DNA of 64,000 bases from Microgenomates group bacterium Gr01-1014_5 (lineage in GTDB: Bacteria > Patescibacteriota > Microgenomatia > UBA8517 > UBA10165), in contig VMGE01000001.1 of assembly GCA_007376395.1 (NCBI GenBank), positions 25,635-89,634 on the forward strand, in the 5' to 3' direction. Made by a program: the position numbers and the translations under genes. The notes beneath the pieces are model-generated. The model was given only the letters and a program-made list of their open reading frames with translations. It ran no database searches and was not told where the DNA came from. Positions within the stretch are counted from its first letter, which is position 1. The number at the start of each line of letters is the position of its first letter. This document shows positions 25,879-37,297 of this stretch, piece by piece.

Positions 25879-26505
25879 TTACTCAGGAGTTCCTTGTCCT
25901 AAGAAAGTTCTGGGGTTGACTGGTAATCCATAGACATTAATCTGAAAATGTAAATGTGTCCCCGTTGACCAGCCTGTACTTCCTTGTTCTCCAATAATAT
26001 GAGTGGTTGTTGTAATAACCTGTCCTTTATACACTTTTATCTTGCTTAAATGGCCGTAAATTGAAATTACATTATTTCCATGATCAATAATAATATGTTT
26101 CCCAAAGCCCCAGAATATTTCACCTTCGTAAATTACGGTTCCAGGCATAAAAGCGTTTACCGGATCTCCTTTGTTGCCTGCTATATCTATGCCAGAGTGA
26201 AATAAATAATATGGTAAATGCGGTACGCCAAATTCATTAGTTACCACACCTTTTGTAGGCCAGACAAATGTAAATTGGACAGTTTCGGTTACCTCTCCTG
26301 ATGTTGGATCATGAATTTCTACTGCTTGGGTTTGTTCATTAACTGTTGCTAGCCTGTCAGAGATAATATCTATCCCTGAGTGCATTAAAAGTGCTACTGC
26401 AACAAAAGGGAGTGAGAGGATAATCAGAAAAGAAAAAGCAACAAATTTAAGTTCTTTTCTATATGACCAAAGAGCGTAAAGATTAGAGGGAGTAAATAAA
26501 GCCAT
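25879..26505 (-). CDS. M23/LytM peptidase (T4SS-associated cell-wall hydrolase, VirB1 analogue)
   Basis: HSGIDIAG...DHGNNVISIYGHL...GSTGWSTGTHLHFQI; N-terminal TM anchor. Confidence 0.8.
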   Translation of the reverse strand: MALFTPSNLYALWSYRKELKFVAFSFLIILSLPFVAVALLMHSGIDIISDRLATVNEQTQAVEIHDPTSGEVTETVQFTFVWPTKGVVTNEFGVPHLPYYLFHSGIDIAGNKGDPVNAFMPGTVIYEGEIFWGFGKHIIIDHGNNVISIYGHLSKIKVYKGQVITTTTHIIGEQGSTGWSTGTHLHFQINVYGLPVNPRTFLGQGTPE

Positions 26506-26509
26506 TCAT

Positions 26510-28327
26510 TTATAAATAAATTTCTCTTGGATCAGTAGTTAGTAGTGGATGTTCTTTATCTGAAGCTACAACTTTTAAGGCTACATGGTTTTGATCTGCA
26601 ATAATAATCGCTTCTCCTCTATCGCAGGTCAGAAGAAATTTTTGTTCGTACTCGCTTAATTTGAATTCATTAGCTACTTTTTCAATGGTGGTTGTATCTT
26701 GTTTCATTAAAACACGGACAGATGACTGGGAGGCGATAGCCCGGCCATACTCTTGGTTCAAAAAGTCATTTGCCTGTTGGGAGATGATGGTTACTCCCAG
26801 ATAATACTTTCTGGCACGTCTGACAAGCCCGGAAATGAATCTTGCGCTCTCTTCGTGCTGTAGAAGCATCCAACCCTCATCAATGACTAAAATACGCTTC
26901 TGAGGGCTTGATTTGACCTGTGCATGGACAAAGTTAGCAACTACCATCATCATTATCTGGCGAAGCGACTCATTAAGATCTTTAATATCAAAAATAACCA
27001 GTCTGTTATCCAATTCGATGTTGGTTTGTGAATCAAAAACTGATGAGAGTGAACCCTTAACAAACCGCTCCAAGCGGTTACACAGATCCTTCTGTTTTAA
27101 CTCTTTAAGTACTTTGTATAAATCTTTGAGTATTGGAAATTCTTTGTTCTTAGTTTTTTTGGTGCCACTCATGGTAAACCCAAAGTTCTTGTAAGTTTGA
27201 ATGATAGCCTTATCGATTACTGCCCGTTCCTCAGCGTTCAAGCCTCCGACCATAAGCGAGATAATCTCTGTTAAGTCCTGAATATGCTCTGCCAAATCAT
27301 TATCTTCACCAAGTGAGTTAATGGTAAAGTCAAAAGGATTGATCTTTTCTTTGGATTTTGCAGAAAGTTTAATGTAGGTTCCGTTTACAGAAGCCGCCAA
27401 CTGTTTATATTCTCTTTCCGGATCAACAACGATAACTTTCGTACCCTGCATAAGTTGTCTTAATATCTCAACTTTTGCGGTGTAGCTTTTACCGCTTCCG
27501 CTCTGGGCGAAGATAATCGAGTTTGCGTTGTTTAAACTAAACCTATCGATAATGACCAGAGAGTTATTGGATTTATTGATTCCATACAAGATACCGGATT
27601 CTTGAACCAATTCTGACGAAACAAAAGGGAAAGTGAGAGCGGCAGACGAGCTATCTAAATTTCTTTTTTGGTTTAACTGGTTTTCTGCCCTTGGAAGTAT
27701 AGATTGTAAACCCTCAAGTTGTTGGAAAGTAGCAATTTTAATATAGAAAAGCCTTGTAGACATGACAGTTTCCAAAAGTGTAGTAATTTTGTTTAAGTCT
27801 GCCAAAGAATCAGCAGTAATAGTCATATAAATTGACACTTGGAATAGTTTTTCCTGGCCTCTTTGAATTTTATCTTTCAACTCCATGGCCGATTCCAGCG
27901 GATCGGTAATTTCCGAGCCGATAACTTTTCCTTGCTTAAGCATGGTTCTTTTAGTTGACTCAAGCTCGGTAATTTTTCTATTAAGTTTAGGTAGCGCCAT
28001 TAGCGGATCAATCTGTTCAATATGATATGAGATATCAACATTGTGGTTGAAGTTAATTAACATATTTAGCCAACCAGTGGAGGCTACATAAGGATAGCCG
28101 GAGATAAATAGTGTTCGAACAAACTTATCACCCATTTGAAGGTAACTTGATGATTCTTCAAGTCCGGAATAAGAAATTAAGTCAAGCTGGTCTTGTTCAC
28201 CGAAATTAAACTGTAAAGACTTTTTAACAACCTCTTTTTTTGAAGGTTTTTTCTTTTTAGGCTTACTGAGATCAAACTTGGGAATATTAAATCTGTTTAT
28301 AAGTTGTAATCTAGGTGTTTTAAACAT
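26510..28327 (-). CDS. virB4: VirB4/TrbE/CagE-family conjugative T4SS ATPase
   Basis: TLFISGYPYVASTGWLNMLIN, Walker A AQSGSGKS, Walker B RILVIDEGWMLL. Confidence 0.85.
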   Translation of the reverse strand: MFKTPRLQLINRFNIPKFDLSKPKKKKPSKKEVVKKSLQFNFGEQDQLDLISYSGLEESSSYLQMGDKFVRTLFISGYPYVASTGWLNMLINFNHNVDISYHIEQIDPLMALPKLNRKITELESTKRTMLKQGKVIGSEITDPLESAMELKDKIQRGQEKLFQVSIYMTITADSLADLNKITTLLETVMSTRLFYIKIATFQQLEGLQSILPRAENQLNQKRNLDSSSAALTFPFVSSELVQESGILYGINKSNNSLVIIDRFSLNNANSIIFAQSGSGKSYTAKVEILRQLMQGTKVIVVDPEREYKQLAASVNGTYIKLSAKSKEKINPFDFTINSLGEDNDLAEHIQDLTEIISLMVGGLNAEERAVIDKAIIQTYKNFGFTMSGTKKTKNKEFPILKDLYKVLKELKQKDLCNRLERFVKGSLSSVFDSQTNIELDNRLVIFDIKDLNESLRQIMMMVVANFVHAQVKSSPQKRILVIDEGWMLLQHEESARFISGLVRRARKYYLGVTIISQQANDFLNQEYGRAIASQSSVRVLMKQDTTTIEKVANEFKLSEYEQKFLLTCDRGEAIIIADQNHVALKVVASDKEHPLLTTDPREIYL

Positions 28328-35709: not shown

Positions 35710-37286
35710 AATTTGATCGTCCTGTTATCCACGAAGATGGCAAGAAAGCAGTTATTTATCTTCGAGTTTCCACCGAAGAACAAGTAGATAATTTTTCTTT
35801 AGGTAGCCAGGAAGATATTTGCAGGAAAGAAGCAGAAAAAAGAGGATATGAAGTGGTTGAGGTTTTCAGAGAAGAAGGAAGATCTGCTAAAACAATTCTT
35901 GGTAGACCTGTACTTATAAGTTTGCTGGAGTATTGCCGGAAGAACAAAACTAAAGTTCACGCGGTATTTGCATACAGGTTAGACAGAATATCGAGACAAA
36001 CCGCAGATTACCTAGCAATCAGGAAAAAGCTTCTTGAACAAGATATAACAATAATATCTGCCACTGAACCTACAGGTGACAGCCCTACTGAAAAACTAGT
36101 TGAAACAATCCTGGCCGGGTTTGCTCAACTGGATAACGATATTAGGTCAGAAAGAGCACGAAATGGGCTTAGAGCGAGATATATGTCAGGTCTTATAAGT
36201 GGTAAGCCCCCACTCGGATATAAGTTTCAGGCAGGGTTTGCAGTTAAAGACCCTGAAACCTGGGATAAGGTGAAAAGGGCTTGGGAGCTTATGGCAACTG
36301 GCACTAAAAGTACCCGAGACTTGGGTAAAATAATGTCTGATTGGGGTTTGAGAGAAATTCATGGCAAATTATCTTATGAACTTCGACCACAATCAGTTTG
36401 CCGTATTTTTAGGCTTAAATTCTATGCAGGTATCTTAACATCTAAAACATATCCTGATGAGATTAAAGGACAACATGTACCAATGATTACAGAGGAGCTT
36501 TTCTATAAGGTACAGGCTCTCCTTGACGGCAGGGGTCCTAACAGAGGGGTCTTTGTAAAAAGAACATTTATAAATGAGGCATTTCCTTTAAGAAGAATTG
36601 TCAAATGTGGTAAGTGTGGTGCAGGGCTAACTGGATACTGGAGCACAGGAAAAATGGGAGTCAGATATGCTTATTATTCCTGCGGCATGAAGTGTAATTA
36701 CAAATGTATCCCTGTAAAAGAAGTTGAGGATAGTGTGATTGATATGCTTAAAGACATCACTCCAAAGGAAGAGGCACTTAAGCTCTTTATCAACTCTGTT
36801 TACAAAGCATATCACCAAAGGCTCTCAAGGCTTAACAAAACAAAAAGCGAAGCAAATCAAGAGATAGAGCGTCTGAAATTACTTAGAAAGTCTCTGGTTG
36901 AAAAAAATCTATCAGGAGTTTATTCGGATGAAATATTTAAAGAACAAAGCGCAATAATAGAGGATAAAATGATAAAGTCTCAGATTTCTAAAGAGGACTC
37001 AATAATTAATAAATATAATATTGATGCACTAACTTCTTTTATTAAAACTCTTTTGGCTGATTTAGGAGAAGCTTACAAAAGATCTAGTATTCCACAGCTA
37101 AAAATACTCCTGAGTTCGGTGTTCGAGGATAATCTCACTTGGGACTATAATGGCACACCGAACTCTAAGATTAGCCCGTTATATCAGTATATTCGTGACT
37201 TTTCGGAACATCATGTCCCGTCTGGAGCGGGAAACGGGATTCGAACCCGCGACCTTCTCGTTGGCAACGAGACGCTCTACCACTGA
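35706..37286 (+). CDS. large serine recombinase (resolvase domain + recombinase domain + zinc ribbon + coiled coil)
   Basis: AVIYLRVSTEEQ (catalytic Ser), ..AYRLDRISRQ.., VKCGKCGAGLTGYWS...YYSCGMKCNYK zinc ribbon. The C-terminal 21 codons read through tRNA-Gly(GCC). Confidence 0.85.
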   Translation: MKFDRPVIHEDGKKAVIYLRVSTEEQVDNFSLGSQEDICRKEAEKRGYEVVEVFREEGRSAKTILGRPVLISLLEYCRKNKTKVHAVFAYRLDRISRQTADYLAIRKKLLEQDITIISATEPTGDSPTEKLVETILAGFAQLDNDIRSERARNGLRARYMSGLISGKPPLGYKFQAGFAVKDPETWDKVKRAWELMATGTKSTRDLGKIMSDWGLREIHGKLSYELRPQSVCRIFRLKFYAGILTSKTYPDEIKGQHVPMITEELFYKVQALLDGRGPNRGVFVKRTFINEAFPLRRIVKCGKCGAGLTGYWSTGKMGVRYAYYSCGMKCNYKCIPVKEVEDSVIDMLKDITPKEEALKLFINSVYKAYHQRLSRLNKTKSEANQEIERLKLLRKSLVEKNLSGVYSDEIFKEQSAIIEDKMIKSQISKEDSIINKYNIDALTSFIKTLLADLGEAYKRSSIPQLKILLSSVFEDNLTWDYNGTPNSKISPLYQYIRDFSEHHVPSGAGNGIRTRDLLVGNETLYH

Positions 37287-37297
37287 GCTACTCCCGC
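37223..37297 (-). tRNA. tRNA-Gly (anticodon GCC), CCA encoded
   Basis: rc: GCGGGAG-TA-GCTCAGTGGTAGAGC..anticodon loop TTGCCAA..GCGGG-TTCGAAT-CCCGT-TTCCCGC-T-CCA. Confidence 0.85.

Follow-up and report, generated by a model that had tools for sequence, protein, structure and literature searches.

A probable 23.2-kb integrative and conjugative element with a large serine recombinase at the 3′ end of tRNA-Gly(GCC) in a Microgenomates bacterium

A 64,000-nucleotide stretch of contig VMGE01000001.1 from Microgenomates group bacterium Gr01-1014_5 (hereafter the window) carries a cluster of type IV secretion system (T4SS) genes and a gene for a large serine recombinase (LSR) that ends inside tRNA-Gly(GCC), which raises the question of whether these genes form a mobile element and, if so, where that element begins. 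An earlier note, made from the sequence alone, had proposed an integrative conjugative element (ICE) inserted at the tRNA-Gly 3′ end, with the recombinase beside the attachment (att) site, and had suggested that the whole tRNA-bounded block from 11.4 to 37.3 kb might be one island. We conclude with high confidence that positions 14015-37232 are an ICE of ~23.2 kb, inserted at the 3′ end of tRNA-Gly(GCC) and belonging to a family widespread in Microgenomates (Candidate Phyla Radiation (CPR)/Patescibacteria). The ICE is delimited and apparently intact, with a full ICE gene set among ~20 open reading frames (ORFs), none of them interrupted; its activity we infer from sequence. From left to right it consists of a mimic of the tRNA 3′ end with a leader, a PLD nuclease gene, an XRE regulator gene, 11 kb of defence cargo, a T4SS operon, a DUF2958 gene, a MOB_C-like relaxase candidate, a coupling protein gene, a 117-aa gene and the LSR gene. 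GC content is 0.351 within the element and 0.40 in the flanks, which hold housekeeping genes including UvrABC, Dxr and a tRNA cluster. ORFs of the ICE were scanned against Pfam and NCBIfam and defence genes against PADLOC, while tRNA-Arg(TCT) and tRNA-Gly(GCC) were called with ARAGORN. The features at and near the two ends are as follows.

11361-11435, minus strand: tRNA-Arg(TCT)
14015-14024, plus strand: attL core TGAGCGGGAG, which repeats attR directly and duplicates the 3′ terminus of tRNA-Gly as an orphan
14015-14096, plus strand: D1 leader (82 nt, repeat family D1), comprising att core, P′ arm and the 5′ leader of PLD
14112-14570, plus strand: small PLD-family (PLDc_2) nuclease (Pfam 1.9e-11)
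14567-14764, minus strand: XRE-family helix-turn-helix regulator of 65 aa, convergent with PLD (HTH_3, 1.9e-18)
35356-35709, plus strand: 117-aa protein (p117), translationally coupled to the recombinase, whose start it overlaps by 4 nt, and with a conserved C-terminal 70 aa
35706-37286, plus strand: LSR of 526 aa (PF00239 Resolvase 2.2e-30, PF07508 Recombinase 3.8e-07, PF13408 Zn_ribbon_recom 8.2e-07)
37223-37232, plus strand: attR core TGGAGCGGGA, the 3′ terminus of tRNA-Gly(GCC)
37223-37297, minus strand: tRNA-Gly(GCC), the integration target, intact (73.3 bits)

The overlap between the recombinase gene and tRNA-Gly(GCC) described earlier spans 64 nt, its last ~21 codons being antisense tRNA; since the LSR gene ends at an att site, the ORF of the integrated state runs on into the antisense tRNA. 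This arrangement is found almost throughout the recombinase family, which supports the earlier placement of the LSR beside an att site at a tRNA 3′ end. LSR homologues of 60–85% identity occur in >120 clusters, and residues Y18-L19-R20-V21-S22 are invariant in 28 homologues. Related loci fetched for comparison are labelled here with L-numbers; 85 such loci carried LSR homologues of 53–85% identity, with 55 distinct loci having enough downstream sequence. In 50 of these 55 assessable loci, covering 16 isoacceptor types, the LSR gene meets an antisense tRNA from codon ~508 on, and the tRNAs abutted are those for Gly (GCC, CCC, TCC), Leu (five anticodons), His, Glu, Met, Val, Ser and Lys. A sequence coding for ISP always lies 52–54 nt from the tRNA end in loci carrying this motif, and many contigs break at the LSR/tRNA junction. 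The genes for DUF2958, relaxase and type IV coupling protein (T4CP) accompany the LSR in most loci with enough upstream sequence.

The gene for p117 adjoins the LSR gene in almost all 85 loci. Profile searches with p117 gave zero matches in Pfam, NCBIfam, PHROG and PDB, and its single-sequence structure model (predicted local distance difference test score 46) is too poor for use; we consider it a candidate recombination accessory or directionality factor. Two observations concern the range of sites used. In L051, L062 and L102, a tRNA-like end begins after the LSR tail but gives way to unrelated sequence once its first 7–10 nt have passed; these ends could be secondary-site insertions or attP-like junctions, and might help to locate the crossover. 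The genome of L038 encodes a second, different LSR of 580 aa (19589-21366) with a 40-nt antisense overlap with tRNA-Asp(GTC), so the tRNA-end architecture may extend beyond the present LSR family.

At the left end, the expected direct repeat of the tRNA-Gly 3′ end proved to be much shorter than had been looked for: the 28-nt tRNA 3′ segment suggested as a query has no second copy, and the second att copy is one of ~9–10 nt at 14015-14024. No long direct repeat of the tRNA-Gly 3′ segment was found with up to 3 mismatches allowed, blastn-short returning chance-level matches only, and Rfam at E≤10 gave no tRNA fragment inside 9–41 kb. Likewise, no tRNA 3′-half repeats were found on the left side of the 85 loci, a search that instead exposed duplications of tRNA 5′ parts by GIY-YIG cassettes. 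Only ~9–10 nt are thus repeated at the element ends. The window contains GAGCGGGA 7 times, whereas 0.94 occurrences would be expected. Because the att core is so short, the case for the attL/attR pair is built on conserved context and not on the repeat by itself. D1 is conserved upstream of PLD in independent elements and its start always mimics the 3′ end of a tRNA. In the window, D1 starts with TGAGCGGGAGACGCAA, in L047 (located at tRNA-Gly) with TGGAGCGGGAGATGCAA and in L106 with GTGCACAAGAG, to be compared with the tRNA-Leu end TGTGCCCAGGA; in L133, for which the LSR end and tRNA lie outside the fetched DNA, it starts with TGTGCGGAAGACG, a tRNA-Leu-like mimic. Cognate attL/attR pairs delimit 23.2 kb in the window (23,208 bp) and elements of 9.8 and 5.6 kb in L047 and L106, respectively. 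Left collinearity with the ICE-free locus L123, whose tRNA-Gly(GCC) is 100% identical to that of the window, stops at D1.

Three junctions, read in tRNA sense, bear on the position of the crossover. Native tRNA-Gly genes end ...CCCGCTC-A-trailer, the ICE-adjacent tRNA-Gly gene ends ...CCCGCTC-CAGACGGGACAT, where the last part equals the antisense LSR tail, and attL reads D1(antisense)...TCCCGCTC-ATAGTC. Taken together, these readings place the predicted exchange in or beside the 3′ strand of the acceptor stem (shared AGCGGGA), that is, in the last few tRNA bases, with the tRNA kept intact. Joining 37190-37227 to 14020-14060 yields a predicted attP junction containing ...TTTTCGGAACATCATGTCCCGTCTGGAGCGGGAGACGCAAGTTATTCCGAAC... 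and ...GTCCCGTCTGGAGCGGGAGACGCAAG..., and joining 13985-14017 to 37226-37260 yields a predicted attB junction containing ...GGGGACGAGACTATGAGCGGGAAACGGGATTCGAACC... The reconstructed attP has GACG...TTCCGAA motifs in both arms, and the tRNA arm has ACG...TTCGAA ~4–5 bp closer in, an arrangement suggestive of the imperfect dyad of serine-integrase sites. The half-site geometry of serine integrases would fit this arrangement of arm motifs, and LSRs require identity only at the central dinucleotide.

A natural counterpart of the predicted junction is found in L139, where the LSR gene is joined straight to PLD via D1-like sequence and a 546-aa ORF stops at the PLD start; this LSR-D1-PLD arrangement reads as an attP-like junction of the kind expected in tandem arrays. 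In the circular (attP) form of the window element, the LSR ORF would enter D1 and stop at the PLD start, giving an alternative C-terminal tail. With the full TGGAGCGGGA core joined to the D1 of the window, hand translation gives the in-frame tail ...LMEAYQ..., compared with ...LMEVYH... in L139, while a scripted join with the 1-nt-shorter attL core was frameshifted.

Several other proposals for the recombination site were considered and set aside. A crossover in the anticodon loop, where homology breaks in L041, was rejected, as identity between L110 and L111 is lost 6 nt into the tRNA and the att cores are the terminal 9–10 nt; for L041, a longer tRNA mimic or else a second insertion is the better account. 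The conserved GATTAGCCCG (ISP) motif, located 54 nt inside the LSR gene, was tried as the crossover point because a remnant in L123 starts exactly there, and was rejected because the motif varies at wobble positions, the other L123 remnant reaches further upstream and the tail is specific to the element, the tRNA being variable. Just upstream of the ISP motif, in the conserved 3′ coding part of the recombinase gene, lies an imperfect 26-nt palindrome with a 2-nt centre (37112-37165), which was rejected as attP, being inside a conserved coding region and away from the homology breakpoints. Finally, donation of the CCA end by the ICE was dismissed as a general rule: enrichment is weak overall (17/52 vs 18/106, p=0.04) and holds mainly in the tRNA-Gly subfamily, so we retain it as a supporting detail only.

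Comparison with related loci shows that elements of this family occupy different integration sites. L110 and L111 are 97.6% identical over 11.6 kb and yet abut tRNA-Leu(CAG) and tRNA-Leu(TAG), respectively; the match between them is lost 6 nt inside the tRNA, and both tRNAs have kept matching acceptor stems of their own. L074, at tRNA-Leu(CAG), has genes for VirB4, TrsD, PrgI, VirB6, VirB2, DUF2958, relaxase, T4CP, p117 and LSR in the same order as the window, so that a block of T4SS, relaxase, T4CP and LSR recurs at a different tRNA, which together with the second att copy bears out the ICE reading. VirB4 is 79–90% identical among the best 120 clusters listed, including records named Daviesbacteria, Gottesmanbacteria and Woykebacteria. 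The Dxr protein of the window is 91% identical to that of Candidatus Blackburnbacteria and ≤69% identical in every listed match outside the four closest (Blackburnbacteria-like) clusters, and VirB4 identity across Microgenomates is thus well above Dxr identity outside these clusters.

The nearest relative, L123 (Blackburnbacteria), shows ~82–92% nucleotide identity to the window in collinear blocks, covering tRNA-Arg, a GIY-YIG gene, a LuxR/GerE regulator gene and D1 on the left, and the sequence from 37169 onward on the right. No full-length matches to the tested T4SS, transfer and recombinase proteins were found in the 16-kb L123 locus, which keeps two LSR-tail remnants only, one 92% identical, beside tRNA-Gly(GCC), and the other 77% identical; these remnants point to loss and not to a site that was never occupied. 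Judged from this alignment, the 23-kb block is not core genome, and the alternative that the earlier note had held against its own proposal, namely a gene order conserved in all relatives as core genome and lacking any att repeat, does not describe the locus. Relative to L123 (6608-9161), the 2.6-kb segment 37169-39782, with Dxr and eight tRNA genes, is inverted, and the inversion endpoints lie in inverted tRNA-Gly 3′-end/att-core repeats (37218-37243 and 39757-39782, 88% complementary). This inversion could have been homologous or recombinase-mediated between att-like sites.

Further sequences related to the element ends occur on both sides of it. D1 copy 1 (12644-12725) comes after the LuxR/GerE gene, shares 89% identity with the attL copy and is also present in ICE-free L123. 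The 1.3 kb between the two left D1 copies (12726-14014) contains a 285-aa ORF without a family and one GIY-YIG cassette; D1 copy 1 may be an older attL, and 12726-14014 the remnant of an earlier element (a cis-mobilisable piece). On the right, a decayed array of the same element family is located at tRNA-Gly(TCC) (39609-40800) and is conserved in L123. Within it, 21 nt of the tRNA 3′ end are present as an orphan copy (39757-39777), together with a third D1 copy (minus strand, 40782-40690), which is preceded by an LSR-tail-like CCCCGTC + TGGAGCGGGA and so forms an attP-like junction, with an AbiEii toxin gene and a 65-aa gene between the orphan tRNA end and the third D1 copy.

These copies bear on the suggestion that the entire interval from tRNA-Arg to tRNA-Gly (11.4–37.3 kb) is one island. 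In a more distant Blackburnbacteria locus, L002, tRNA-Gly(GCC) and tRNA-Arg(TCT) are just 2.6 kb apart with unrelated content between them, which would favour one island, and the D1/att-like copy at 12644 could be its outer boundary. However, 11399-12713 (GIY-YIG gene, LuxR/GerE regulator gene and D1) is collinear at 82% identity with ICE-lacking L123, the conserved terminal PLD module and the att core are located at 14015, and 12726-14014, with D1 copies on either side, may be what is left of something older and lie outside the present ICE. We therefore regard a single island over the whole interval as improbable; most of the proposed block does belong to the ICE, which begins at ~14015 rather than at tRNA-Arg.

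Small GIY-YIG ORFs of 82–97 aa are found at 11426-11719, 13704-13955 and 37288-37536, all on the minus strand, directly 5′ of tRNA genes and overlapping the tRNA 5′ end, and similar ORFs occur in L002, L043, L096 and L108. Three of these cassettes had been placed between the recombinase and tRNA-Arg, where there are only two, the third (37288-37536) lying beyond tRNA-Gly. Each cassette has an upstream hairpin and repeats part of the tRNA 5′ sequence, namely GTTGAGCTACGGGGTC (11420-11435, again at 11775-11790) and GCTCTACCACTG (37272-37283, again at 37564-37575). L123 lacks the ~275-bp cassette found at tRNA-Gly, and the end of one Logan contig, L035, falls exactly on the tRNA 5′ end. The unit looks like a mobile endonuclease cassette homing to tRNA 5′ flanks.

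The transfer genes occupy the right half of the element, and every gene that the earlier note had named there (M23, VirB4, the 206-aa protein, VirB3-like, VirB6-like, VirB2-like, DUF2958, VirD4, the 117-aa protein and the LSR) is present.

25879-31092, minus strand: T4SS (mating-pair formation) operon with overlapping genes (Pfam/NCBIfam), made up of the six genes that follow
25879-26505, minus strand: M23 peptidase/hydrolase
26510-28327, minus strand: VirB4 (NCBIfam CD1110 family, 379 bits vs the 325-bit cutoff)
28320-28940, minus strand: 206-aa TrsD/TraC-N-like protein, homologous to the N-terminal part of VirB4
28912-29430, minus strand: PrgI/VirB3-like protein
29427-30791, minus strand: VirB6-like protein, T4SS_pilin (N-terminal) plus TrbL
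30760-31092, minus strand: VirB2/TrbC pilin
31367-31666, plus strand: DUF2958 protein, conserved as part of the transfer module and co-occurring with relaxase and T4CP in many loci
31705-32472, minus strand: 255-aa candidate relaxase of Replic_Relax/MOB_C type (PD-(D/E)XK fold)
32652-35207, minus strand: T4CP, VirD4/TraD-like, with a DUF8128 N-terminal part

The T4SS fits an MPF_FATA-like/Patescibacteria type with a monoderm VirB4, a separate TrsD-like protein, PrgI/VirB3, a VirB6-like protein and a hydrolase, and its gene order is the same in L074, L131, L133, L135, L138 and L139. The split VirB4 (TrsD plus ATPase) is the norm in the family and no frameshift. No match to VirB8, VirB9 or VirB10 was obtained among the ICE ORFs scanned against Pfam. 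The coupling protein has TrwB_AAD_bind, TraG-D_C and DUF87 domains and TraD/VirD4-like NCBIfam matches, all of them weak, and its family is conserved beside the relaxase. As for the 255-aa protein, the Replic_Relax label given to it earlier applies to the family better than to the window copy, which misses PF13814 at E<0.01 while 22 of 26 family members match it, the best at 6e-15. In work on streptococcal integrative and mobilisable elements (IMEs), PF13814 corresponds to MOB_C relaxases (Coluzzi 2017, PMC5357655). The intergenic region between the divergent T4CP and p117-LSR operons contains an AT-rich stretch with nested palindromes (35290-35326; GGATATATACTATCCATATATGGATA), a candidate operator or origin of transfer (oriT).

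The remaining genes, between the T4SS operon and the left end, are mostly related to defence.

14865-18086, plus strand: DrmD-like SNF2 helicase (PADLOC DrmD 1.2e-169)
18083-21370, plus strand: type IIG/ISP restriction-methyltransferase (PADLOC REase_MTase_IIG 8e-209)
Within 21372-24337, first of the group, plus strand: 168-aa protein with no assigned function
21811-22638, plus strand: Cas4-like PD-(D/E)XK nuclease
22628-23065, plus strand: Shedu-like DUF4263 fragment
23075-24337, plus strand: trypsin-like protease
24550-25107, plus strand: 1-TM effector of a minimal CBASS (cyclic oligonucleotide-based antiphage signalling system; TM, transmembrane) (PADLOC Effector 2.7e-62)
25109-25873, plus strand: CBASS oligonucleotide cyclase, SMODS (PADLOC Cyclase 4.2e-85)

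The defence island between the recombinase and tRNA-Arg is indeed present, and we interpret it as cargo within the element and not as a separate island. VirB4 neighbourhoods were examined in L131, L133, L135/6, L138 and L139, of which L131 is too short past M23. In the other four, the T4SS operon is followed by 0–4 kb of unrelated genes and then by an XRE gene convergent with a ~150-aa PLD. PLD homologues of 61–66% identity are located at the far end of L133, L135/6, L047 and L106, with genes likewise called PLDc_2 in this position in L138 and L139. Comparative evidence thus identifies XRE and PLD as a conserved left-terminal module of the element family, and because the cargo found from M23 to this XRE-PLD pair varies among other copies, the defence genes at 14.8–25.9 kb appear to fill a cargo slot between the T4SS operon and that pair. 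The minimal elements L047 and L106 extend from PLD (with a 68-aa XRE-sized ORF in L106) via cargo to p117 and LSR, from which it follows that the backbone of the family is its two ends, conjugation and cargo modules being optional. Other cargo is seen near relaxase-T4CP-p117-LSR modules, namely a diversity-generating retroelement (reverse transcriptase plus bAvd) at 1-950 of L038 and a copper/metal resistance cluster at 21-4739 of L042; as neither has a T4SS within 10 kb of the LSR, these may be mobilisable and not self-transmissible.

A mobile unit restricted to 25.9–37.3 kb, with the defence genes and XRE-PLD forming a separate neighbouring island, would account for the lowest GC content being at 14.8–25.9 kb (0.334 vs 0.365), for the switch in gene orientation at 25.88 kb and for the different cargo, and the lack of a T4SS within 10 kb, in many family members (L038, L041, L042). 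It is extremely doubtful all the same, given that the 5-nt gap where M23 and cyclase converge (25874-25878) has no att-like sequence, that the XRE-PLD pair follows the T4SS operon after 0–4 kb in four other genomes, that L047 and L106 span PLD to LSR with matching att cores and that L139 joins LSR directly to PLD.

A number of points weigh against an ICE with the boundaries and functions proposed here. The att core is short and differs by a 1-nt indel between attL (TGAGCGGGA at 14015) and attR (TGGAGCGGGA at 37223), which alone is statistically unconvincing and could impair excision, and the extra D1 copies (12644; 40782-40690), which we read as decayed arrays, complicate the assignment of the left end. 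With its LSR-tail remnants, L123 is not a naive attB, and neither a circular junction nor a clean empty site was recovered for the source strain. The relaxase is a candidate only, the Pfam match of the window copy being weak, and no oriT was found in the element. In addition, the one systematic survey of Patescibacteria T4SSs describes them as mostly non-conjugative, MOB_C being the commonest of the few relaxases, and as probably repurposed from conjugation because relaxases are rarely found (Quinonero-Coronel 2025, PMC12102498), and the Saccharibacteria T4SS is needed for epibiotic growth, so the window T4SS might act in host interaction, whether alongside DNA transfer or in its place.

Taken to its limit, this last argument makes the T4SS a resident, non-conjugative Patescibacteria system for an epibiotic lifestyle, with the recombinase and tRNA as mere neighbours. 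Published surveys, in which most Patescibacteria have T4SS genes that are often close to dnaA but seldom accompanied by relaxases, are compatible with this, as are the essential role of the T4SS for growth in a cultured Saccharibacterium and the gene set of the window (VirB2 pilins, PrgI, TrsD, VirB4), which is typical of Patescibacteria. We nevertheless consider it very unlikely: the operon is inside a block bounded by att repeats and conserved terminal modules, in L074 it has moved together with relaxase, T4CP and LSR to another tRNA, the nearest relative has no full-length ICE gene at the locus, VirB4 is far more alike across Microgenomates lineages than Dxr, and ICE markers were present in 5/5 other VirB4 neighbourhoods examined.

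A possible though rather doubtful description of the locus is that of an ICE by descent that can no longer move and persists, decaying or domesticated, as an island retained on account of its defence cargo or T4SS. It would fit the 1-nt indel of attL relative to attR, the decayed relatives in the region (D1 copy 1, the third D1 copy, the orphan tRNA end and the LSR-tail remnants in L123) and the IMG/VR search for circular forms, in which one distant LSR match and zero attP-pattern matches were obtained, this viral-contig collection being ill-suited to finding circles. On the other hand, the ~20 ORFs are intact, including those for recombinase, T4CP, VirB4 and relaxase, the split of VirB4 reflects the family norm, and the indel need not matter if the crossover is in AGCGGGA, as only the central dinucleotide has to be identical.

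Under the preferred interpretation of an ICE, the LSR, probably with the coupled 117-aa protein, would excise the element as a circle, and the MOB_C-like Replic_Relax protein would nick an oriT. The VirD4-like coupling protein would then pass the DNA to the monoderm MPF_FATA-like T4SS with its VirB2-type pilins, and in the recipient the LSR would re-integrate the element at a tRNA.

Several known systems share parts of this organisation. As in the Patescibacteria T4SS of PMC12102498, VirB4 is related to MPF_FATA and is accompanied by TrsD, PrgI/VirB3, a divergent VirB6 and VirB2 pilins, but that system is described as chromosomal and co-opted for non-conjugative roles, whereas the window T4SS is in a bounded, LSR-mobilised element with a T4CP and a relaxase candidate. 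The ssrA islands of Dehalococcoides (McMurdie 2011, PMC3146451) also have a CcrB-like LSR (DsiB) whose ORF always crosses the att site into an antisense tRNA-like gene, a short far-end repeat of the RNA-gene 3′ end, tandem whole and decayed arrays downstream of the target and a variable recombinase C-terminal tail. They differ in targeting tmRNA with a T-loop crossover and a 20-bp repeat, compared with many tRNAs, the acceptor end and a 9–10-bp repeat in the window family; in being IMEs without conjugation genes, compared with an element having a T4SS, a T4CP and a candidate relaxase; and in having as partner a second, small serine recombinase (DsiA), compared with a p117 that has no Resolvase domain. 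The resemblance is one of architecture and not of membership. Firmicutes ICEs with a single serine integrase, such as streptococcal ICEs at rumA (Ambroset 2016, PMC4701971), similarly combine an MPF_FATA-type T4SS with an LSR, the att site being inside the 3′ end of the integrase gene, so that integration swaps the coding end of the integrase C-terminus, and their direct repeats are very short. These ICEs alter a protein-coding target, while the target tRNA of the window is kept intact and the host belongs to the CPR, and classical Gram-positive systems do not have the VirB2-type pilins present in the window and reported for Patescibacteria.

Tyrosine-integrase ICEs and islands at tRNA genes, including actinomycete ICEs such as pSAM2 (PMC2440964), likewise use the tRNA 3′ end, have the integrase beside att, preserve the tRNA and show accretion at the same tRNA, whereas the window element has a serine enzyme and a much shorter repeat, with no 20–60 nt tRNA segment duplicated. 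Lastly, CcrB of the SCCmec pair CcrA/CcrB is the best NCBIfam match of the LSR catalytic domain (2.6e-27), and both systems are site-specific for the 3′ end of a conserved RNA-related housekeeping gene. The score of 95.7 bits is, however, far from the 900-bit CcrB cutoff, and the window element differs from SCCmec in having a single recombinase, a tRNA rather than rlmH as target and its own transfer machinery. LSR-type ICEs and LSR ORFs crossing att sites are therefore already known. No literature linking Patescibacteria with serine-recombinase ICEs was found, and the words integrase, recombinase and tRNA are all absent from the main text of PMC12102498; a tRNA-targeting LSR family carrying a Patescibacteria-type T4SS appears to be undescribed.

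We see an even chance that a broader proposition also holds, namely that this is a large undescribed Microgenomates family that is truly conjugative, in which the T4SS would be a working DNA-transfer machine in this class, the LSRs would have diversified to the acceptor ends of at least 16 tRNA isoacceptors, the relaxase would be a divergent MOB_C/Replic_Relax protein possibly missed by standard profiles, and the family would be a main defence-system vehicle among ultra-small groundwater bacteria. A large part of bacterial diversity belongs to CPR/Patescibacteria, and gene exchange among them is barely known; a bounded element recurring at many tRNA sites across Microgenomates, with attP and attB sequences in hand, makes CPR conjugation directly testable. 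A high density of defence genes has been reported in groundwater CPR (PMC12259885), for which the element offers a concrete vehicle. The family also provides related serine integrases that form a natural series and whose paired tRNA attB sites are easy to predict, which is useful for studies of integrase specificity.

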